Made by a program: the position numbers and the translations under genes
Shown here: piece after piece, positions 12,486 through 45,717 of the stretch
How positions within the stretch are numbered: position 1 is the stretch's first letter
Layout of the letters: each line of letters begins with the position of its first letter
The notes under the pieces: generated by a model
What the model was told of the DNA's origin: nothing
What the model saw: only the letters and a program-made list of their open reading frames with translations
The model's database searches: none
Assembly: GCA_028717685.1 (NCBI GenBank)
Contig: JAQUNI010000004.1
Coordinates: 8,599-72,598, forward strand
Origin: Patescibacteria group bacterium
GTDB taxonomy: Bacteria; Patescibacteriota; JAQUNI01
DNA length: 64,000 nt
Direction: 5' to 3'

Positions 12486-12652
12486 GAATTACGAAATTTT
12501 CATAGAATCATAAAACATTCCTCACCTTGACCTGCGGAAGGGTTTAATAAATGACTATTCTCCCACCCCCTCCATCTCCCCCTCGGGCAGGGGGAGAGCC
12601 GCTCCCACCCCTCCTTTCTCCCCTTCTGGCGGGGGAAGTGAGTTGCGTAATT
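12486..12652. repeat. GC-rich MITE family A, copy 1, with TIRs (GAATTACG...CGTAATT) and CTCCCCCTCGGGCAGGGGGAG hairpin core
   Basis: Shared modules with copies at 24.57, 26.7, 33.3, 42.9, 45.65, 46.9 kb. Intergenic between the histidine phosphatase and surE. Confidence 0.7.
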
Positions 12653-26564: not shown

Positions 26565-26850
26565 ATTGTTTGTTGGCTCCATAGTGGCGTTAGCCCTATG
26601 GAGCCAGGATGCAAGCCGTGAAAGTATGATCAGACTTTAATAACGTTTTGCATTGCGGCTCCACAGCCCTCATTTTGAGTTCGGGACTATGGAGCCAACA
26701 GCTCCCACCCCCTCCATCTCCCCCTCGGGCAGGGGGAGAGCCGCTCCCACCCCCTCTTGTCTCCCCCTTCCTCCTTCGTTTTACTTCCGGCGTAGCGGGT
26801 CCGCTACGCCAGAGCGTCAGCGAGGCGAGCAGGGGGAGTGTAATTAAGTT
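26565..26850. repeat. Composite repeat block: two family B hairpins followed by a MITE family A copy with an extended GC-rich tail ending GGGGGAGTGTAATTAAG
   Basis: ggctccatag/ctatggagcc (26566-26595), ggctccacag/gactatggagcc (26656-26696), then ctcccaccccctccatctccccctcgggcagggggag and the right TIR gtaatta. Several overlapping ORFs here are spurious. Confidence 0.65.
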
Positions 26851-33235: not shown

Positions 33236-33341
33236 CATACGATGACTATTCTCCCACCCCCTCCCCGCCCGCCTCGCCTGAAGCGAAGCGATGGCGGGCA
33301 GGCATCTCCCCCTCGGGCAGGGGGAGTGAGTTCTGTAATTC
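33236..33341. repeat. MITE family A copy with the inserted module CCGCCCGCCTCGCCTGAAGCGAAGCGATGGCGGGCAGG
   Basis: gatgactattctcccaccccctcc...ctccccctcgggcagggggagtgagttctgtaatt. The same inserted module occurs at 44.9, 47.0 and 58.0 kb. Confidence 0.65.
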
Positions 33342-34514: not shown

Positions 34515-35078
34515 TTATCTTAAATTTTTTGGTCTTTTATTTTTCAAAAGGAGACAAATATAGGACTTTTTTTTATTCCTATGCCATCTTATCAATTGCT
34601 TCAACATTTCTCTTCCATTTTTGAAAGCAATATTTTTCGGCAACTTGGAAATTTCAAACCATCGCAGTTCTTCAATATCATCACCTGGTTTTAGTTTTCC
34701 GCCAGTAACTGTTGCCGTATAGCATATGTTCATGGTCGGGAACGAGCCGTCATAAACGTCCATAAAAAATCCTATCATATCTGTGGGTTCAACTTTAAGA
34801 CCGGTTTCTTCACGGACTTCTCTCTTCATGCCTTTTTCGGGATGCTCTCCCGGCTCTAAAAATCCTCCAATAACATCCCACATGCCTTTTGAAGGATCTA
34901 TTTTTCTTTTTCCTAACAAAACTTTATCTCCGTCCAAAATCAAGGCGCTTGAAGTGGGTTTTGAGTTTTGGTGGAAAATGAACTTACATTTCCATTTCAA
35001 ACATTGCAATCTGGAGCGTCCGCCTATTATTTTTTCGGTTAGCAAATCTCCGCACTTTGGGCAATATTTATACAACAT
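34515..35078 (-). CDS. NUDIX hydrolase with N-terminal zinc ribbon
   Basis: 'CPKCGDLL...C..C' ribbon, then Nudix box 'GGFLEPGEHPEKGMKREVREETGL'. Confidence 0.7.
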   Translation of the reverse strand: MLYKYCPKCGDLLTEKIIGGRSRLQCLKWKCKFIFHQNSKPTSSALILDGDKVLLGKRKIDPSKGMWDVIGGFLEPGEHPEKGMKREVREETGLKVEPTDMIGFFMDVYDGSFPTMNICYTATVTGGKLKPGDDIEELRWFEISKLPKNIAFKNGREMLKQLIRWHRNKKKSYICLLLKNKRPKNLR

Positions 35079-35085
35079 TTCCCTG

Positions 35086-35667
35086 TTATTTTAATAGATT
35101 TTTTGATTTAGAATAAATTTCTTCCAGCTCTTTTATTATATCGTTATTTAACCTTCCTTTCAAAATTTTTAGAACCTCCCCGTAGTAACACATTTTTTTA
35201 TCTATTGGCGCATTAAAGTTATCAAATAGTTTTTCACCCTGTTCTTTATATGCTTCTGTTATAGACTTTAAATTATGAATTTTGTCTGCCGCGCAAACCA
35301 TCATTGCTTCAAAGCTATCGTTTTTTAAATTATCAAGATACTCCTTCTTTCTTTGCTCCCACGTCGCTTTTGCTTTTTCTGGGCTATCTTCTGGGTCTTT
35401 ATTTTCCGAAACCTCTTTTACTATTTGGGCTATTTTATCACCAAAATCTCTTTTTATATCTTCCATCGTACAACCCGGAACATCTTCTAAAACATCGTGT
35501 AACAACCCGGCAACAATTATATTTTCATCGTCTGTATAGTTTGTTAAAATAAAAGCAACGGAATAAGGATGAGTAATATAAGGCACATTCGCGTCTTTCC
35601 TTTTTTGTCCGAAATGAAGCACGCTTGATTTTACAATAGCTCTTTGAATTTTTGGCGTTAGCTTCAT
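35086..35667 (-). CDS. HD-domain (p)ppGpp hydrolase-like protein (RelA/SpoT hydrolase domain; small alarmone hydrolase-like)
   Basis: 'HFGQKRKDANVPYITHPYSVAFIL' and 'IIVAGLLHDVLEDV' match the SpoT/Mesh1 HD hydrolase motifs. Confidence 0.65.
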   Translation of the reverse strand: MKLTPKIQRAIVKSSVLHFGQKRKDANVPYITHPYSVAFILTNYTDDENIIVAGLLHDVLEDVPGCTMEDIKRDFGDKIAQIVKEVSENKDPEDSPEKAKATWEQRKKEYLDNLKNDSFEAMMVCAADKIHNLKSITEAYKEQGEKLFDNFNAPIDKKMCYYGEVLKILKGRLNNDIIKELEEIYSKSKNLLK

Positions 35668-35743
35668 ATTTTAAAAATATTCTATTTAAACCAGTTTCAA
35701 ATTTTTCCGAGGGCGCGCTTGATGGAGTTAACCCTATTTTTTT

Positions 35744-36052
35744 CTACTTTATCATTACTAAAAGCATTTTAAATCTTTTTAGCGCTTTTAAGGAATGGGG
35801 TTTATGGGCAGGAAGTTTAATTATTTGCCCTTCAATAAGCGTGTATGCTGTTTTTTCAATTTTAATTTGCGCTTCACCGTCTATAATATAAGCCAGCACA
35901 TTAAACGGGGCTGTGTGTTCGCTTAGCCCTTGACCTGCGCCAAAAGCAAAAATTGTTACTGTGCCATTTTTTGTTTTTAAAATTTCTTTGCTCACTACCG
36001 AACCTTGTTGATATTCAATATGTTCTTTCAATGTGATTATTTCTTTTTGCAT
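35744..36052 (-). CDS. Cupin-domain protein
   Basis: 102 aa. 'GQGLSEHTAPFNVLAYIIDGEA' cupin motif. Confidence 0.55.
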   Translation of the reverse strand: MQKEIITLKEHIEYQQGSVVSKEILKTKNGTVTIFAFGAGQGLSEHTAPFNVLAYIIDGEAQIKIEKTAYTLIEGQIIKLPAHKPHSLKALKRFKMLLVMIK

Positions 36053-36082
36053 AATTTTTTTACAATTTTCTTATTGGGTAAT

Positions 36083-36400
36083 TTAAAAAAGTTTGGTGTT
36101 ATAAATCTCGCCAATATTGAGCGACTTAAATAAATCATCATTCAAGATTTTTTCTATTTTGGCCAACAATGTTTTATCATTAGAACTTATTAGTTGGGAT
36201 ACTTCTTTGCTTTGGTTGTCTATAGCATATATTTTCAGACTATCCGTGTTTAATTCGGCCTTTTCTAAAAATATTTTATTCAAACCAGTTTCAAACTTGT
36301 CCATATCCGAGAAACCTCCTCCAAAGCTATTAGAAAAATTTATAAGTCCTGCACGTTTTAAATCATATAAAGTTTTTGTTTTAGAAGATTGTAATTCCAT
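36083..36400 (-). CDS. Hypothetical protein (105 aa), first gene of the AT-rich island
   Basis: ORF only. Lys/Asn/Ile-rich composition. Confidence 0.3.
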   Translation of the reverse strand: MELQSSKTKTLYDLKRAGLINFSNSFGGGFSDMDKFETGLNKIFLEKAELNTDSLKIYAIDNQSKEVSQLISSNDKTLLAKIEKILNDDLFKSLNIGEIYNTKLF

Positions 36401-36472
36401 ATTTTTTAAGCTCTTTGAGCCGATCTATAATTGGTTGTTCGACCAATGAATTTTCGTTAATTTTAATCATAT

Positions 36473-37732
36473 TTATACCAATTCTAGTTCATCTTTATTC
36501 GGAGGAATAAATCCCTTTGGCAAATCTTTTAGAATATTTAAATGACTATAAATTCTATACCTTATTACTTGTGGTATTCTATGCCATTTTTCATAAAGTA
36601 GGTCATTTTCTTTAATATATTCTAAATAAAAGCTCTCAAAAATTTTCTTAAATTTTTTTTCACCTAAAAAAGAAATAGCAACTAATTCGGCTATTCCAGC
36701 CGTAAAAAAACATATTGTATAAAGGTTTCTTTCCAAAAATAAAAGCAATCCACCTTGCTTTAATTTGGCGAGAGTCTCAATTCCCTGATAATTACTCCAA
36801 ACTCTAAATTTATACAAAATATCTAGAATGGTAAAGATATCTTTATTATTTGCTTTTGAAAAAAAAGTTCTTTTAAGATCATTACGATATTCATTTTCTA
36901 ATTGATATATATTTTTATTGCCTCTCGGACATTGAGCATATTTAAACCGCCACTCTCTTTTATTAATATCTAAAAAACTTTTTTTGATCAATCCTTTTTT
37001 ATAACAAATATTAAATGGAAATTTTAATATTATTTTTGAATATTTAGATAGCTGATGTCTATTAAAATATATCGATGACTTTCTATGTTCTTCGGTTTTT
37101 AAGCTTGGATTCTCGGTGAAAACAAAGGAAGTAAAATAAGAATAAATAGAATAATAATATTTGATGATTTTCCAAGAAGGAAATAATGAAATTCCAGCAT
37201 CATCATCTATATAATCCAAACTACTGCCAATATTAAAATCCTGTGAAAAGGGATAACCTCCTGCTATTTCATTATACCAGCCTTGCATTAAATGAAACTT
37301 AAATTTAGTCTCTGAAAAATTTTTACCGACTAAAACATTTTTAAATTTTAAATGATTATAATCCAAATCTTTAATAAATAATTGATATAATGTGTCGATT
37401 TTATATCTTCTGCTTTTCATCATTTCACGATCAGCAAATCTCATTTTCAACATCCAAGCAAATCTATCTACAATATCATGATATGATAGATATCCTTCCA
37501 ATTCTGGGTGATATTCATATAAGAAGTGTTTCGGTCCACTTAATATTTCTTTTTGGTATTCTTTATTTGACGAAAGAAGGTTTAATCTCGGGTATTGATA
37601 TGTAGGGATTAAATATCTTTTATCCTTCCCTAATGTATAATCTAATAAATCTGATTTTATTAGTTGTTTTAAATAGCTTTCTTTAAGATTAAATTTCTCG
37701 GAAATAAATTTTAACGTTTTTAGTTCTGTCAT
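36473..37732 (-). CDS. Hypothetical protein (419 aa) with an N-terminal excisionase/AlpA-like helix-turn-helix
   Basis: N-terminal 'LKFISEKFNLKESYLKQLIKSDLLDYTLGKDKRYLI' resembles HTH_17/Xis DNA-binding domains. The rest is uncharacterized. Very AT-rich codon usage. Confidence 0.4.
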   Translation of the reverse strand: MTELKTLKFISEKFNLKESYLKQLIKSDLLDYTLGKDKRYLIPTYQYPRLNLLSSNKEYQKEILSGPKHFLYEYHPELEGYLSYHDIVDRFAWMLKMRFADREMMKSRRYKIDTLYQLFIKDLDYNHLKFKNVLVGKNFSETKFKFHLMQGWYNEIAGGYPFSQDFNIGSSLDYIDDDAGISLFPSWKIIKYYYSIYSYFTSFVFTENPSLKTEEHRKSSIYFNRHQLSKYSKIILKFPFNICYKKGLIKKSFLDINKREWRFKYAQCPRGNKNIYQLENEYRNDLKRTFFSKANNKDIFTILDILYKFRVWSNYQGIETLAKLKQGGLLLFLERNLYTICFFTAGIAELVAISFLGEKKFKKIFESFYLEYIKENDLLYEKWHRIPQVIRYRIYSHLNILKDLPKGFIPPNKDELELV

Positions 37733-37866
37733 TTAAATAAAATGTCTTAGGGATTAACTTTATTTTTTTCACTCATTAACTTTGGTAAAAGTAGATCGCA
37801 AAGAAATGATAGAGTTTATCCGCCGCCGCCGAATTTCGCGCCAGCAAAAATGGCGTGTTGCCAGGA

Positions 37867-38307
37867 TTATTTTTTATAAACAACAAAATAAGGCAACTTA
37901 TCTAACCCAATATAATTAAACATCCAAAGTTCTCGGCCTGATTTTTTTATTGTAGTAAATCTTTTTCTCAAATTTACTTTTGGAATGAATGGATAAAATC
38001 TAATTTCTTGGCGTTTACCACCTTGCCCGTTCCATTTGAAATTTACTATTAATGGTGGGGTAATAAATCCTGATTTCAAAACTTTATCAATAATTTCCCA
38101 TCCCGCTCCAAAGATGATGGACTTTGGTTTGCATAGGTTTGTTTTTATTTGAGCGCGAAACGAACAAGCTGTACATTGCACGTCGTACAGAGGGTAGCTC
38201 TCCGGCAATAACATCAATTTTTTCTTACAATTTGGGCAAGATACTAAATTGACAACCTCCTGCTCTCCAAGATTGCCAGCATATTTGTTTCCGTGATTAT
38301 TTTTCAT
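37867..38307 (-). CDS. Small Zn-ribbon protein (about 147 aa), possible nuclease or accessory component of the R-M island
   Basis: 'CPNCKKK...CTAC' ribbon followed by 'DVQ...AQIK'. Immediately downstream of the beta-class methyltransferase. Start chosen at the MKNNHG Met to avoid a 50-nt overlap. Confidence 0.3.
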   Translation of the reverse strand: MKNNHGNKYAGNLGEQEVVNLVSCPNCKKKLMLLPESYPLYDVQCTACSFRAQIKTNLCKPKSIIFGAGWEIIDKVLKSGFITPPLIVNFKWNGQGGKRQEIRFYPFIPKVNLRKRFTTIKKSGRELWMFNYIGLDKLPYFVVYKK

Positions 38308-38311
38308 AATT

Positions 38312-39088
38312 CTATGTAATAGTTTCCATCCTATGTTTAGCCATTTTAGAATACTTGGCATTTTTTTCTATCCCTATCCACTTTCTGCCTAATTTTTTTG
38401 CAACTACAGCTGTGGTGCCGCTACCTAAAAATGGGTCTAAAACCAGATCGCCTTTATTTGAGGACGCAACGATGATCCTTTTTAGCATCTCTTCCGGTTT
38501 CTGTGTTGGGTGTAATGCTCTACCATCCTTTCCATGTAATCTTTCTTTTCCTTGTACTAAAGGCAATGACCAAACATCCCTCATTTGTTTGAGTGCCCCA
38601 TTTTTCTGTGTTTCAGGGTTTATTTTTTTTAATTCGACATAGTTAAAAATCCATTTTTTACCCTTAACCGCCCAAACGACAAATTCTGTTGAGTGAGTAA
38701 AAACTCTTTTTGTCATATTGGGCATCGCGTTTGTTTTTTGCCAAACAATGACATTATTAATTTTGAAATCGAACTGTTTCAGTACAATGATCACCTCTGC
38801 AAGATTGTGGTAGGTGCAAGAAATATAGATTGAGCCATTATCTTTCAATATTTTGTGGCAAGCACCAATCCATTTTTTCGTAAACTGTATATATTCTGGG
38901 GCGGTCATTTTATCCCATTCTTCGTTCACCATATACCAATCACCGCCAGTTTTATTTCCTTCCCATTTAAGACCATTGCCCGAAAGATTGTAGGGCGGAT
39001 CGGCAAAAATCAACTCAACTGACTTTTTATCAATTTTTTCATTCAATATTTTTATGCAATCGTCAGTGTAAATAGTGTTGAGCTTCAT
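38312..39088 (-). CDS. DNA methyltransferase, beta-class (N6-adenine or N4-cytosine)
   Basis: Motif IV 'FADPPYN' precedes motif I 'DPFLGSGTT' (beta permutation). Start [11 protein letters not shown]. Confidence 0.7.
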
Positions 39089-39090
39089 AA

Positions 39091-40923
39091 TTATTGCTTT
39101 GCTAAAATAGATTTTTGCCATTCAGTAATTGTTTCCGGTATTTGCTCAATCCACTTCTCGGAATGAGCAACACGATTCGTTAGACTGAGGATTTGTTCAT
39201 AAAGATTTAATAACTCATCGTGCGTAAATCGTTTTCCTTGTTTTCTGATTTCTAAAAGACTTTCAAGTAGTCTGACAAATTGCGCAATAGAGAGGGGAAC
39301 AATTTTTTGTGCAGTTCCTTTATAGCCGTATTTTATCGCCATCCAAAATGTCTCAACGGTATCTTGATGTAGTCGTGGAGCAATGAATAGGCAATAAGCT
39401 GTCTTGTCGGTATGGGATTCTTCAAAGTCGCGCACATGACGCATAACAGGTTGTCCCTCGTTGTACCACTGTGAACGATTCGTCAGCATTGTAACCTCGC
39501 ATACGGAATTAAACTGTTCATAAAAGCATTCTATATCCGGCTTATTGGCTGGCGCAGTAAAAGTAGGCTCGTTGTCATCTCCAACCGGATAGTTTGGTTT
39601 AATCTCTAGTGCGTCGTTAAGAGCGTTGAGTGCAAGCGTTGAGAGCCTTTCAAGTTCAATACTCTTTTTATTGTCTGACTGATAAATACCCCTAAGTGCG
39701 TTAATATATTCTTGAATTTTAGCGACATCTTGCGATTCAAAATGAGTTTCAAGCTCTTGTAGTTTTCTACGGTAACCTCGCAATTGCTCGATATACTCTT
39801 TTAGTTGATCCTCAATTAAGCTCTCAATCTTTTTAAAATGAAAGGGCGGTGCTGTTATTATTTTTGATTTCAGATCGATTACATATTCTTGCACATCCCG
39901 ACTCAATTTTTCTGCAATTTTTCCTAACTCCGATTTTGTTTCCCACGGCAAAACAGGTTGCTCAATATCGGCAAGATATTCTATGTATTTGTCGGCATTT
40001 TCGTATGCTAGAGGAGCGGCATTATCCGTAGAGAGTAATTTATCAATCTCGATAGACCTTCTTGGTTCCAAATTAACATAAAACCCGCCGCCCCGAATAT
40101 GTAGATATCTGGTTAATCTGAAATATCGAATCGCGTTGTCGCCATAATCCTTAAGGTTGTTAAGAAGTTTTTTAATTTCACTGCCTTTGTTTGTTCTTAA
40201 AAATGTTTTGGAAAAATTATTTCCAAACTTTTTTTTAAATTGCTTTCTTCTCTTGTCGTCTTTTTGTGAACGCAGCCCAACTCGATATTCAATTAGTTTT
40301 TCCGCTTGCTTTTTGATATTTTTGTAATCTATAAGCGTTGGTGCAAATAAAGAGAATTCATCTTTACTTATTCCGATAGGGTTATTTCCTAATTTTACCC
40401 ATCTCTTGTTCACTTCGTTTATAAGATGTAATGCTCCTATAAATGGTTTGATAGCAAATCCGTCATTTTCTGAAAATGTTGTACTTGCTGGGTTAGGAAG
40501 TTGCCATTTCAAAAAGTGTATAAAGAACAATTTACCCAAATCATAATTTTCAGAAAGAAGATATTCGCCTAGTGGGGTAATCTTAACGCCTTCGACTGAA
40601 TTTTTGGCTATACACAAACCCATTTTATTAAGTGGCGCAACAGAATTTCTGCCACGCATTGCCGGATCTTCGTAACCTTGTACATTAAAAATTTCTTTTG
40701 CAACAGAAAATGGCATTTCTGTTTCAATATCATCAAAATATTCTTGTTGTTCTCTGGTTAAATTAGTTGGTTTGTAAAACCTATTTTGAATGAGGAGAAT
40801 TTGGTATTTAATTTGATTCTCTGAATTAAAGGGTTGTCCCTCTAGTTCTTTCAGAACGCGCAAGAAATCCCGTAATCTATCGGGGTTTCTCACTGTTGTT
40901 GATATTGACCAAGGTTTTTTCAT
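39091..40923 (-). CDS. Putative Type IIS restriction endonuclease, AlwI/Nt.BstNBI family
   Basis: 610 aa. N-terminus '[23 protein letters not shown]' follows the W-x-V/I-S...R-x-P-E/D pattern I recall for the Nt.BstNBI/AlwI N-terminal region. Flanked by two methyltransferases in the same orientation. Confidence 0.5.
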
Positions 40924-40928
40924 AATTG

Positions 40929-42743
40929 TTATTTTATTACTTTACAATAAAAGATTCGTTCTGTGTGTCCATCAGTATCGCTTTTGCCTGTTGTAAATGC
41001 TTTATAATCCCTTTCAAAAATATCAACATTGCCACGAGTTTTTAATATATTTATAATTCGCTTATCACTAATGCGAGCATTTGATCTTCCGTCCTTAGAT
41101 TCGCCGGTGTTATTATAAGAAACCAAAATATGTTTACAGTTTGCGTTCGAAATTAAATCAGCAAATGCCCTCGATGCTGACTGTAGACAGTAATCACTTT
41201 TAATATGTGACCTATCCATCTTTTTTGCTTTGCCATACACTGATGGTTTTTCCCAAGTAGCAAGGTTTTCTAGAAGGTGATAGGCGTCAGAATACTGGCG
41301 AGAATTATAAGGTGGATCAATATATAAAACGTCACACCTTATTTTTTTGATAAGCTGATTTGCGTCTTTTTTATATATTTCATTATTTGAGTTATTTTCT
41401 GGCTCAAAATCCGGAACCAAAAGACGTAGTGGTTGGATTGTGTCTAGTTTTTTTCTGTATGCATCATAGTGGCCAACTGTATTTGCCACCTTATCAACTG
41501 CGTATAGTAATGTAGTAATCAAAACAGCTCTCTCATTATCGCTTTTTGCAATCTCGTCAATTTTTTCTCTGACAGCGCCGATTTTGCGAGCGTTCTCTAA
41601 GGTGAAAAAGGTATTGCCGAAATGTTCAGAAAAATAATTGTCATTGTGCACTTCTAAGTTATTGAGCAGCTCTATTTTCTTTTCTATTTCCTTAAAATCA
41701 ATTTTCGAAGTTCCCAAAAAAGATTTTAATGGTAGATAATTACTTACTAAAAAGTCGTTGGCAATAACTTTTATATCTTTTTCATTAAATCGTTCACCAA
41801 CAACACCAGTACCCGCAAAAATATCACAGAACACACCGAAGCCGTTGCATTTTTCGTTGACAATATCCTCAATAAGACCGAGCAGTTTATATTTATTTCC
41901 TAAAAATCTTCTATTTTGCAGCTGGAAACGCCCCGACTTAATTCTACTTTCAGGGTAAAAATATACCTTATGTATTTTTTTTATTTCTGGGGTATAAGTT
42001 GGTTGTGCAGTTTCTAATAGATCGAAAAGGGAATTTTGTACACCATCAGAAATATAATGCGTTACTTTACTATCCGAGCTTTGTATTTCAGAAAAAAAAC
42101 TGTGAGTGTCATTTTCACTAACAATAATAAAATCAATAACATTCACACCCATTATTTTACCTGCTTCGAGAATTTTATTCACGACTTCCATATCTTGTTT
42201 ACTGGGGGTAACATCTCCTGATGGGTGATTATGTAACAAAATGATCCCAGCCGCTCGTAACTCGACGGCGGGGCCAAAAATTTCTCGTGGATGAATAATG
42301 CTTTTATCTAATATACCGATAGATATAATTTCTTTTTTCAGTAGCGCATTTCTTGCGTTGAGATATAGACATACCAAATACTCTTTTTTCTTGTCTCGTA
42401 TGTCGGAAGTTAAAGAAATCGCATCTTGGGCGGATAAAACAATGTTATCTTTTGGTTCCAATTCTTCATAAAATCTTTTTATTAACGCCAGAGCAGAAAC
42501 AATTTGTAGGGCTTTTGCCTCTCCAATTCCAGAAATTTTCAAAAGATCATCAACTATTATGTCTAAAAATTTATTTCCGAATTTTCTGATTATCTGTTCG
42601 GAAAGTTGTTTAACATTTTTTCCCTTAATTCCGCTTCCAATAAGAATAGCCAAAAGCTCGCTTTTAGAAAGAGCATCTGGACCTTTTTCTAAAAACCTTT
42701 CGCGTGGCCTATTAATTTTTGGAATGTCTTTAAGCTTTCCCAT
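40929..42743 (-). CDS. Fusion protein: RadC-like JAB/MPN domain (N-terminal) plus Dam-like alpha-class N6-adenine DNA methyltransferase (C-terminal)
   Basis: RadC N-terminal HhH 'ELLAILIGSGIKG' and JAB motif 'IILLHNHPSGD'. Then Dam-family motifs 'FLGNKYKLL', 'FCDIFAGTG', 'VLYIDPPYN'. Confidence 0.7.
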   Translation of the reverse strand: MGKLKDIPKINRPRERFLEKGPDALSKSELLAILIGSGIKGKNVKQLSEQIIRKFGNKFLDIIVDDLLKISGIGEAKALQIVSALALIKRFYEELEPKDNIVLSAQDAISLTSDIRDKKKEYLVCLYLNARNALLKKEIISIGILDKSIIHPREIFGPAVELRAAGIILLHNHPSGDVTPSKQDMEVVNKILEAGKIMGVNVIDFIIVSENDTHSFFSEIQSSDSKVTHYISDGVQNSLFDLLETAQPTYTPEIKKIHKVYFYPESRIKSGRFQLQNRRFLGNKYKLLGLIEDIVNEKCNGFGVFCDIFAGTGVVGERFNEKDIKVIANDFLVSNYLPLKSFLGTSKIDFKEIEKKIELLNNLEVHNDNYFSEHFGNTFFTLENARKIGAVREKIDEIAKSDNERAVLITTLLYAVDKVANTVGHYDAYRKKLDTIQPLRLLVPDFEPENNSNNEIYKKDANQLIKKIRCDVLYIDPPYNSRQYSDAYHLLENLATWEKPSVYGKAKKMDRSHIKSDYCLQSASRAFADLISNANCKHILVSYNNTGESKDGRSNARISDKRIINILKTRGNVDIFERDYKAFTTGKSDTDGHTERIFYCKVIK

Positions 42744-42769
42744 TTTTATTTCATTAAACCATCCCTCAA

Positions 42770-42915
42770 GCCCTGTAGTGAGACTTCAGTCCCGAGGAAC
42801 ATTCAGTCCCGAGGGATTCTCTACTACGGGGCAAGAGCCCTCCTACGCTCTTTGGGCTACGGAGTATTTTTCTCCCACCCCCTCCATCTCCCCCTCGGGC
42901 AGGGGGAGTGTAATT
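42770..42915. repeat. MITE family A copy with a tandem ttcagtcccgagg duplication in the left arm
   Basis: ccctgtagtgagacttcagtcccgaggaacattcagtcccgaggg...ctcccaccccctccatctccccctcgggcagggggagtgtaattc. Confidence 0.6.
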
Positions 42916-43118
42916 CATCTTATAATTTCGGCACTTCGTCCCTTCTTCGTCGCTTCGCTCCTTAAGAGTTCCTCAGTGTCTTTAATTTTCATCTAACTAT
43001 ATAGTAGGTGGTCAAAGATAATACCCTTCTACTTCGCTACGCTCAGTATCAGGGACTTCTTCTTTTTTATATAGAGCCGGAGGCACTGATGAGCCTCCGT
43101 CTCAAAGGAGGCGAAGAA

Positions 43119-43132
43119 GTGCTGGGGAGGCA
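43119..43132. repeat. 14-nt exact direct repeat of the tRNA-Gln 3' end (att-like site)
   Basis: gctggggaggcagg is identical to 43505-43518, i.e. tRNA positions 61-74 in reverse complement. Brackets the GIY-YIG gene. Confidence 0.55.
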
Positions 43133-43177
43133 GGTGTCCTTCGCCTGCGGCTTCGGAGCACCTAATTACCTCCAAAA

Positions 43178-43438
43178 CTATTCCTTCTTCAAGGCTTCGG
43201 GAATAAGTCTTTTATATGTAAATGCTTTACCTGAACCAGTTTTTAAATATTTTTCAAACAACTTTGCCTTTTTAATTGTTGAAAATCCACAATACCAAAC
43301 AAGTTGCCAAGGAATAAAAGGTTTAGTTGATTTAGATAAGCCTTGGTTGTGTTCAGTATATCTTTTTTTGAGATTGTTTGTATAGCCAAAATAAAGCTTT
43401 TTTGATTTTAGACTATAAAGAATATAGCAATAATACAT
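43178..43438 (-). CDS. GIY-YIG nuclease domain protein (YhbQ/UPF0213-like)
   Basis: 'YYCYILYS...LYFGYTNNLKKRYTEHN' GIY-YIG motifs, 86 aa. Confidence 0.7.
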   Translation of the reverse strand: MYYCYILYSLKSKKLYFGYTNNLKKRYTEHNQGLSKSTKPFIPWQLVWYCGFSTIKKAKLFEKYLKTGSGKAFTYKRLIPEALKKE

Positions 43439-43502
43439 ATTTGCCTCTTATTAAACTTTATCAGATTTGAGGCGTAAGCCATTCCGAAGCCTTGGCGAAG
43501 GA

Positions 43503-43576
43503 TGGCTGGGGAGGCAGGATTCGGACCTGCGATGATAGGTTCAGAGCCTATTGCCTTACCGCTTGGCTACTCCCCA
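43503..43576 (-). tRNA. tRNA-Gln (anticodon CUG), CCA encoded
   Basis: UGGGGAG acceptor pairs with CUCCCCA. D-loop AGCGGUAA. Anticodon loop CUCUGAA. T-arm GCAGG-UCCGAAU-CCUGC. G73-CCA. Architecture matches E. coli tRNA-Gln. Confidence 0.85.
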
Positions 43577-43866
43577 ATGAAAAGTTAAATCTCAAAAGTA
43601 AAAAGTTAAAAGTAAAAAATATAATTTTAAAATTTTACGGAATAAGGAAATTGTGAATCATGAATTTCATTTTCTTCACTGCAAATTATACCAAATTTTT
43701 GCCTTAAAGTAAAGATTTCCCGAGCTGTTTTAGGGAATAAAATAGCCCTCTGGCGATTAAGAGGGCTTTACCCACTTTAGAGTTGGAATTTTAAGATTAT
43801 CTCTTTAATTAAACCCCTCTCTAATTTCCCCTTGTCAGGGGAGAGGTTTGATTCTCCATTTAAAGG

Positions 43867-45648: not shown

Positions 45649-45717
45649 GAATTACGATGACTATTCTCCCTCCCCCTCCACCTCCCCCTCGGGCAGGGGG
45701 AGTGAGTTTCCTAATTC
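45649..45717. repeat. Compact MITE family A copy (69 bp) occupying the prfB-ftsE spacer
   Basis: gaattacgatgactattctccctccccctccacctccccctcgggcagggggagtgagtttcctaattc. Its right end overlaps the prfB TAG stop. Confidence 0.65.

Follow-up and report, generated by a model that had tools for sequence, protein, structure and literature searches.

Genes and borders of the variable block

We analysed a 64,000-nucleotide stretch of DNA from a Patescibacteria group bacterium (assembly GCA_028717685.1, contig JAQUNI010000004.1, positions 8,599 to 72,598; hereafter the window), in which a run of minus-strand genes lies between an FtsX/tRNA-Gln side and a cupin/HD side. The original prediction, made from the letters alone, read positions 36060-43135 as an AT-rich Type IIS restriction-modification island of five minus-strand genes inserted beside tRNA-Gln. 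Those five genes are all present, together with a sixth minus-strand open reading frame (ORF), p105. The genes and features of the locus are:

35086-35667, minus strand: HD-domain gene, conserved flank
35744-36052, minus strand: cupin gene, conserved flank
36069-42741: variable block of 6.67 kb, homology to the closest relative ending at both sides
36083-36400, minus strand: p105, orphan ORF of 105 aa, leftmost in the variable block
36473-37732, minus strand: p419, encoding a 419-aa protein
37867-38307, minus strand: DpnI-like nuclease gene, 146 aa
38312-39121, minus strand: M2, beta-class (N6_N4) methyltransferase
39091-40923, minus strand: R, 610-aa endonuclease
40929-42743, minus strand: RadC~M1, 604 aa, gene 1 of the operon
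42742-42981: conserved 240-bp GC-rich spacer upstream of the operon, from blastn against the relative
about 42744-43177: GC-rich non-coding stretch
42982-43686: second replaced segment (tRNA-Gln 3' fragment, GIY-YIG gene and tRNA-Gln(CTG)), from homology breakpoints
43178-43438, minus strand: GIY-YIG gene, 86 aa (Pfam GIY-YIG, 9.6e-17)
43503-43576, minus strand: tRNA-Gln(CTG)

Four of these genes form an operon (37867-42743, minus strand) in the order RadC~M1, R, M2 and DpnI-like, with intergenic gaps of 5, -31 (the start of M2 overlaps the end of R) and 4 nt (M2 to the DpnI-like gene), followed by 134 nt to p419 and 72 nt to p105. A scan for promoters and terminators gave 32 against 31.9 in shuffled sequences, which is no better than chance, and we claim no operon signals. 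The DpnI-like protein and p419 are 100% identical to NCBI PHW01_05085 and PHW01_05080, respectively.

Scanning metagenomes with FtsX as the query protein gave eight loci, of which seven extend far enough past FtsX to show tRNA-Gln; it follows FtsX directly in all seven. The closest relative, contig Ga0265296_1000821 (its two sides are loci L094 and L102), has a 97% identical FtsX protein and flanks of about 90% DNA identity, and keeps both the FtsX-tRNA-Gln and the cupin-HD flanks; the nearest relative found is labelled Candidatus Doudnabacteria. Homology runs to tRNA-Gln on one side and resumes on the other at 36068, 16 nt upstream of the cupin start codon, while the right breakpoint (42741/42742) coincides in both genomes with the start codon that opens the first gene. 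The left boundary drawn in the original prediction is nearly exact (breakpoint 36068/36069), but the right one overshoots the end of the variable block at 42741/42742. Likewise, insertion is borne out by synteny, but the island does not abut the tRNA and carries no signs of tRNA-directed integration.

Between the same flanks, the closest relative holds about 14.9 kb of other genes (L094 6451-16155 and L102 1-8600), and all six island genes of the window are absent from it. Its slot encodes an AAA_14/DUF4143 ATPase, a 1062-aa PLD(NgoFVII-like)-SNF2 protein, RhuM, a 1093-aa Eco57I/MmeI-like enzyme, a TnsD-like helix-turn-helix (HTH) protein, DUF559, SocA/Panacea and PDDEXK_1, and by this predicted gene content it is a different multi-system defence island. 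In L096, from a more distant relative, tRNA-Gln is immediately followed by an unrelated N6_N4 methyltransferase gene. The island call of the original prediction is upheld by the other defence genes found between flanks of such high identity, and by the recurrence of the cassette in other classes of the candidate phyla radiation (CPR).

The spacer at 42742-42981 is common to the relative, where it is split by the insertion of a 1.8-kb AAA_14 gene (by blastn, L094 6464-6558 and 8361-8488 match window positions 42981-42896 and 42885-42742). In both genomes the spacer runs right up to the start codon of the gene that opens the cassette. An Rfam scan of 30-50 kb matched only tRNA and nothing in the spacer, which is thus not a known RNA. 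The spacer does contain one copy of a GC-rich element of about 40 nt resembling repetitive extragenic palindromes (CTCCCCCTGCCCGAGGGGGAG...), found at 12559-12596, 26702-26738, 33303-33328, 42867-42908 (the spacer copy) and 45665-45702; it is intergenic, common to relatives, and yields spurious Pro/Gly-rich ORFs.

We put at roughly three in four the probability that 36069-42741 is a composite defence island, occupying a slot with exchangeable content in a Doudnabacteria-like chromosome, flanked by FtsX/tRNA-Gln on one side and cupin/HD on the other, made up of a core Type IIS operon, a DpnI-like nuclease and a p419/p105 module, and placed there by cassette replacement. The element would be of an ordinary kind, a horizontally acquired Type IIS restriction-modification island in a defence hotspot; its unusual features are the fusion of RadC to a methyltransferase and a DpnI-domain-only nuclease at the operon end. 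Alternative restriction systems share slots at the pneumococcal DpnI/DpnII locus and in the E. coli immigration control region. Much like those loci, the present one has alternative restriction systems between conserved flanks and possibly a modification-dependent nuclease beside classical restriction-modification genes; here two slot alleles have been seen, and recombination is the presumed mechanism. At this locus, very small CPR genomes swap their defence cassettes behind a single upstream spacer that they have in common, and a recombinase gene was not found in the island.

The restriction-modification operon and its RadC fusion

The domain calls of the original prediction were confirmed by hidden Markov model searches. 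R matches Pfam RE_AlwI (PF09491) at full length (E 1.1e-85, model positions 2-441 of 441), the PADLOC 'Type II nicking endonuclease' model REase_II PDLC03393 (2.3e-147, positions 2-622 of 624) and, in the PDB, Nt.BspD6I (2ewf; 2.8e-31 over residues 85-590). It has a single C-terminal PD-(D/E)XK-type domain as in Nt.BspD6I, with the catalytic motif PD-x13-EVT at residue 462; a 17-residue catalytic segment of R aligns opposite PDMEIIYEDFIVLGEVT in the 2ewf comparison, and the C-terminal domain also matches the BspD6I small subunit (4e-8). On these matches, R is a predicted Type IIS endonuclease or nickase of the AlwI/Nt.BstNBI-BspD6I family and a routine new member of it, from which we infer an asymmetric target. 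A plasmid search for R found only AlwI-family genes of 21-34% identity, with 21-27% for those on plasmids of cultured bacteria.

M2 matches Pfam N6_N4_Mtase (8.4e-64) and has its motifs in beta order (DPPY, then FLGSG, of the FxGxG type). Both methyltransferases match PADLOC Type II models, and both share the operon with R while keeping intact motifs for S-adenosylmethionine binding and catalysis. The closest solved relative of M2 is CcrM (6pbd, 8.4e-61, versus 4e-35 for MboIIA and 2e-30 for DpnA). Against the NCBIfam CcrM model M2 scores 1.2e-77, or 261 bits against an equivalog cutoff of 830, and covers positions 2-250 of 350 only; it is below the cutoff and leaves the C-terminal part of the model uncovered, so it is not an equivalog-level CcrM/HinfI GANTC enzyme. 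Word counts in the window gave observed/expected ratios of 0.73 for GAATC/GATTC (rank 5 of 512), 0.76 for GAGTC/GACTC and 1.05 for GGATC. Since M2 is closest to CcrM, and GANTC words are mildly depleted and GGATC is not, a recognition site of the GAGTC type, as in MlyI, PleI and BstNBI, is weakly favoured.

The Type IIS interpretation offered originally holds as family membership: an AlwI-family R stands with two N6-methyladenine (m6A) methyltransferases of different classes in a close-packed operon. Known AlwI-family systems (BstNBI/BspD6I, MlyI and PleI with GAGTC; AlwI with GGATC) likewise have full-length RE_AlwI and PD...EVT, and m6A methyltransferases accompany the enzyme in Type IIS systems as they do here (PMC4081073). 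There are also differences. Similarity to BspD6I reaches only about E 1e-31; MlyI has a single GASTC enzyme and AlwI a fused pair (PMC4081073), whereas the two methyltransferases here are separate and of different classes; M1 carries an N-terminal RadC; and the adjacent small protein has a DpnI fold, instead of being a copy of the R catalytic domain as in BspD6I.

Jacksonbacteria (L001-L005, L009) and Saccharibacteria (L010) carry these four genes in identical order, in unrelated genomic settings. Two further loci (L008, L014) have the order [RadC~]M1, second D12 methyltransferase, shorter AlwI-family R, DpnI-like gene. Protein identities to the window are:

RadC: L009 65%, L010 62%, L008 63%, L014 not fused (M1 alone)
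M1: L009 68%, L010 67%, L008 44%, L014 41%
R: L009 51%, L010 53%, L008 26%, L014 22%
M2: L009 75%, L010 75%; second D12 enzyme instead in L008 and L014
DpnI-like: L009 79%, L010 76%, L008 78%, L014 73%

Conservation is far higher at the two ends of the cassette than in its core, since L008 and L014 keep RadC (in L008) and the DpnI-like gene while M1 and R diverge and M2 is replaced. In all five hosts the cassette is lower in GC than its flanks (0.34-0.42 versus 0.39-0.53; for L008, 0.358 versus 0.533).

RadC~M1 joins a full-length RadC to a D12-class N6-adenine methyltransferase in one 604-aa ORF. The RadC half (helix-hairpin-helix (HhH) domain UPF0758_N plus JAB) spans residues 1 to ~235, about 42039-42743, and the D12-class half residues ~270-604; Pfam gives RadC 1.3e-34, UPF0758_N 2.4e-21 and MethyltransfD12 2e-31. 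With 207 bits against NCBIfam RadC PRK00024/NF000642 (cutoff 180) and 191 bits against TIGR00608 (cutoff 134), the RadC half clears the curated RadC (UPF0758) cutoff; it matches RadC 2qlc in the PDB (5e-25) and keeps the JAB metal motif HxHx7Sx2D, seen as an intact HNHPSGDVTPSKQD at residue 171. The protein also matches PADLOC MTase_II (1.4e-118), and the M1 motifs are intact in alpha order (FAGTG, then DPPY). The same RadC-M1 fusion is found in L001/L009, L010 and L008.

One could suppose that the fusion is meaningless, a read-through or an assembly or annotation artefact in which a housekeeping radC was joined to the first gene of the cassette. Indeed, the Jacksonbacteria homolog is in some cases (L002, L005) annotated as a 405-aa methyltransferase alone, RadC is widespread as a separate protein, and a RadC half is missing from most D12 homologs. 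We nevertheless consider an accidental fusion quite improbable: the ORF is single and uninterrupted with intact JAB, FxGxG and DPPY motifs, its halves are alike in GC (0.345 and 0.341), the fusion is kept in at least four independent assemblies and lineages, and fusions to C5 and N6_N4 methyltransferases exist in other phyla, one of them heading an HpaII-type operon. In addition, the closest relative has no radC at the locus, which indicates that RadC moves with the cassette. A native host origin of the RadC half was ruled out on the same grounds of equal GC, no radC in the relative's locus, and conservation of the fusion elsewhere.

To place the fusion more widely, the 604-aa RadC~M1 was searched against 1.84 billion representative proteins. 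Two further full-length RadC-D12 clusters were found, along with RadC fused to C5 cytosine methyltransferases (P0162, P0201, P0238, P0175) and to an N6_N4 methyltransferase (P0248), from sources that include Campylobacterales, Ca. Thioglobus and Armatimonadota as well as CPR bacteria; loci L103-L105 belong to the C5 and N6_N4 fusions. Among the matches listed, three of the C5-fusion RadC halves are closer to the window RadC (51-63% identical; P0238 46%) than are stand-alone RadCs (at most 48%). The operon of one C5 fusion consists of an HTH controller, RadC~M, RE_HpaII, Vsr, a 460-aa protein and a D12 methyltransferase, and every RadC-methyltransferase fusion seen in genomic context here heads a restriction-modification operon. 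Fusions of RadC to HhH, ArdC, DnaG and DinG are known, and a role in nucleic-acid processing has been proposed; in the portions of the RadC literature consulted (PMC3239186, PMC5512222), no description of fusions to D12, C5 or N6_N4 methyltransferases was found. As far as those portions go, published fusions resemble the window protein in a full-length HhH plus JAB with metal motif and in a DNA- and conflict-related context, and differ in that the window RadC is joined to the modification methyltransferase of a restriction-modification operon.

A tentative proposal follows these observations, one that we regard as possible although the odds are against it. RadC may be a working partner of restriction-modification methyltransferases, with one RadC subclade (HhH plus intact JAB) repeatedly fused at their N-termini while the D12, C5 or N6_N4 partner is exchanged; linked to this, the DpnI-domain-only family with a QxK active site, described below, may be an m6A-reading nuclease attached to CPR m6A operons. 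If true, RadC, a protein over whose role there has been dispute for decades, would gain its first concrete functional setting; it might direct methylation to incoming or single-stranded DNA, or process DNA that the cognate endonuclease has damaged. Because RadC is recurrently joined, within restriction-modification operons, to methyltransferases of three unrelated classes, the long-open question of its function becomes directly testable. Separately, at L030 (9055-10423) a DpnI-like gene is immediately preceded by a stand-alone RadC gene (36% identical), and no restriction-modification genes intervene; this arrangement, and the conserved ends of L008 versus the window, hint that RadC and DpnI-like genes may frame a slot for restriction-modification cores.

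The DpnI-like nuclease at the operon end

The original prediction described the small protein at the operon end as a 147-aa Zn-ribbon protein and gave neither it nor the 419-aa protein an assignable function. It is actually a homolog of the DpnI catalytic domain, by profile and by Foldseek, with a Cys4 zinc site, and the two proteins can now be described as a DpnI-like nuclease and an HTH-HEPN-like protein. Against Pfam DpnI (PF06044) the protein scores 22.9 bits, under the gathering cutoff of 26.7, and many of its homologs have a precomputed PF06044 match. With a 31-sequence family profile the top PDB match is DpnI 4esj (E 0.017), covering DpnI residues 27-152. An AlphaFold2 model (predicted local distance difference test score 88.7) finds DpnI 4kyw as the best Foldseek match (E 1.4e-6, TMq 0.75), with 4esj also at the top. 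The zinc site CPNC...CTAC aligns with CPNC...CNHC of DpnI, and D42 and K55 align with DpnI D53 and K66. The active-site motif reads E15...D42-x10-Q53-x-K55, of which D42-x10-Q53-x-K55 is invariant in the 31 sequences.

The likeness to R.DpnI (Type IIM, Gm6ATC-dependent; 4esj, 4kyw) therefore lies in the fold of the catalytic domain, the CxxC...CxxC zinc site and the positions of D...xK. R.DpnI differs in its length of 254 aa, with a C-terminal winged-helix domain that reads m6A, whereas the 146-aa protein is without the winged helix; and it has the Glu of (D/E)XK where the DpnI-like family has an invariant Gln. A Q-for-E variant of the PD-(D/E)XK site has been reported for BtgZI (PMC4081073), which makes the predicted nuclease activity plausible.

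The family has 1302 database homologs. In a one-genome-per-species collection, 195 related DpnI-like genes were confirmed, and the context counts below cover the 80 loci kept, almost all of them CPR; PLSDB plasmids contained no homologs. An AlwI-family gene is present at only 5 of the 80 loci, and upstream neighbours show an enrichment of restriction genes: ResIII (9), SWI2_SNF2 (6), Type I R (3), N6_N4 (3), HNH (3) and Eco57I (2). Across CPR, the family is often found immediately downstream of m6A restriction-modification operons of Type I, Type IIG and Type IIS. The idea that the AlwI-linked subclade (RFTT-type) always accompanies AlwI genes was ruled out, as three other close members adjoin Type I or Type IIG genes: one follows a Type IIG enzyme, one follows a complete Type I operon and one lies beside Type I M and S. 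One close member (L011) sits among housekeeping genes. In one Patescibacteria genome (L006/L036 5069-8432), the DpnI-like gene follows 974-aa and 256-aa proteins without a Pfam domain, which could be an unrecognised partner system.

There are two possible explanations for this protein. Given the varied contexts of the family, few of them with AlwI genes, we favour an autonomous nuclease module as the most likely one, possibly modification-dependent by analogy with DpnI or Mrr. Under the other explanation, R and the DpnI-like protein would form a heterodimeric (Class III / Type IIT) Type IIS enzyme, in which the latter would take the place of the small subunit of BspD6I without being homologous to it: R, like Nt.BspD6I, would nick the top strand and bring in the DpnI-fold protein as the small catalytic subunit for the bottom strand. 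R matches both the PADLOC nicking endonuclease model at full length and Nt.BspD6I, and the partner of BstNBI/BspD6I is a small protein from the adjacent downstream ORF, a copy of the large subunit's catalytic domain (PMC3017599). No such paralog of R residues 426-610, and hence no BspD6I-type small subunit, exists anywhere in the window; the DpnI-like protein itself was rejected as a BspD6I-type subunit, having no sequence match to 2p14 and a DpnI fold. In L008 and L014 (M1-M2-R-DpnI-like) the gene stands directly after R or overlaps it, though R is only 22-26% identical, and the AlwI-linked copies have a distinctive C-terminal segment. Against a subunit role, 75 of the 80 loci have no AlwI-family gene, and close RFTT-type members lie after Type I or Type IIG systems, for which no additional subunit is necessary, or among housekeeping genes. 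The DpnI-like protein also stays 73-79% identical while R falls to 22-53%, unlike an interface partner, and M2 separates its gene from R in the window, with two more genes between them in L010. We judge the subunit role unlikely on balance. If confirmed, this family of more than 1300 very highly conserved members, nearly all of them from CPR genomes, could provide a new modification-dependent or nicking enzyme of practical use.

The p419/p105 module, the tRNA-Gln side and the arrival of the island

The Xis/AlpA-like HTH ascribed to the 419-aa protein in the original prediction is supported: distant members of the family carry HTH_17/MerR, and the predicted structure has an N-terminal MerR/excisionase-type winged HTH followed by a large helical domain that may be HEPN-like. 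The family is rare (23 database matches), and p419 itself has no match in Pfam, NCBIfam, PADLOC, PHROGs or PDB sequences. Its conserved residues are FRVWSNY (R310, N314, Y315) and H216, with no evident HEPN R-x4-6-H in the family alignment. Homologs adjoin large serine recombinases, a tyrosine integrase, TraG-like proteins and GIY-YIG genes (L088, L090). p105 has no match in Pfam, NCBIfam, PADLOC or PHROGs, large protein databases not having been searched, and no counterpart was found in the p419 loci or in the closest relative; the relative's 102-aa ORF between cupin and HD was compared with it and rejected. Because of the neighbours of its homologs and the much lower GC, p419 is set apart together with p105 as a module that is more AT-rich, stems from a mobile element and was acquired on its own. 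A part for the pair in abortive infection or in regulation would be a guess. A 40-nt direct repeat (88% identical) links the 76-nt cupin-HD gap (35669-35708) to the p105 coding sequence (36263-36302) and may be a recombination scar.

On the other side of the block, the window tRNA-Gln(CTG) has the acceptor stem TGGGGAG...CTCCCCA with an encoded CCA, whereas tRNA-Gln in all seven relatives has TGCCGGG...CCCGGCA and no CCA, despite flanks of about 90% identity in the closest. By this comparison, the window tRNA-Gln is a putative non-orthologous replacement. A 705-bp segment including it (42982-43686) stands in place of 118 bp of the relative, and within this segment the GIY-YIG gene and a tRNA 3' fragment lie between tRNA-Gln and the island. 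The GIY-YIG gene is bracketed by 25-nt direct repeats (43110-43134 and 43494-43518), which include the last 16 nt of the tRNA, and by 19-nt inverted repeats (43182-43200 and 43484-43502). It has the appearance of a small mobile element whose insertion duplicated the 3' end of the tRNA.

These features invite a classical explanation, in which a site-specific recombinase integrated the island into the 3' end of tRNA-Gln and the island has since degraded. The block lies downstream of that end, a 25-nt repeat of it is present at 43110-43134, p419 homologs elsewhere adjoin integrases and serine recombinases, and the content next to the tRNA varies among close relatives as a tRNA-targeted island would show. 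The repeat pair, however, brackets only the 384-bp GIY-YIG segment, and the tRNA-end repeat occurs only at 43122 and 43506 with none near 36069. Furthermore, the tRNA side is separated from the operon by the 240-bp spacer that the relative has kept too, homology breaks on the right at a start codon and not within the tRNA, and there is no recombinase gene within 35.6-43.9 kb. A tRNA-targeted origin is very unlikely in our estimate, and cassette replacement at a hotspot is favoured over it because neither a recombinase gene nor a bracketing repeat was found.

For the composite island, the mechanism would run as follows. M1 and M2 would place m6A on the two strands of a short asymmetric site; the N-terminal domains of R would bind the unmethylated site, and its single PD...EVT site, in the C-terminal part, would cut a few bases away on one side. 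The DpnI-like gene product would act as an autonomous nuclease, probably a modification-dependent one, and p419 and p105 would have come separately from a mobile element. The block would have arrived by cassette replacement, likely through recombination via the conserved flanks, and not through a tRNA-targeting integrase.

Several observations weigh against this account. No integrase or transposase gene was found among the ORFs and Pfam matches of 35.6-43.9 kb, and no repeat brackets the island to explain its mobility. Composition gives mixed support: the other genes of the window have a mean GC of 0.418 (sd 0.043), and the AT-richness claimed in the original prediction applies to p419, the most AT-rich gene in the window (0.260, z -3.7), and to the p105 region (~0.30), but for the four genes of the operon the drop below the mean is just moderate (0.335-0.365, z -1.2 to -1.9). 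The flanking HD (0.326) and cupin (0.343) genes are as low as the operon, so composition alone cannot delimit the island. The depletion of GAGTC is weak (z -1.5), and word statistics do not settle the recognition site. An m6A-dependent nuclease beside m6A methyltransferases requires non-overlapping specificities; if the host site were GGATC, a Gm6ATC-specific DpnI-like enzyme would be self-toxic. Finally, all five AlwI-linked copies of the DpnI-like gene fall in one 7-member clade of the family tree, which leaves room for a functional link to R.

Gene-level turnover between the window genome and its closest relative is high. A Zn-ribbon-NUDIX gene (34515-35078, between HD and a 204-aa gene) is absent from the relative, which has extra genes of its own: genes for TPR and beta-propeller proteins, and the 102-aa ORF that lies between cupin and HD. 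Across the whole window, several words unrelated to the operon are avoided, with observed/expected ratios of 0.20 for GGCC, 0.34 for TCGA, 0.40 for CATG and 0.17 for CTCAG/CTGAG, which suggests past or present pressure from other restriction systems.

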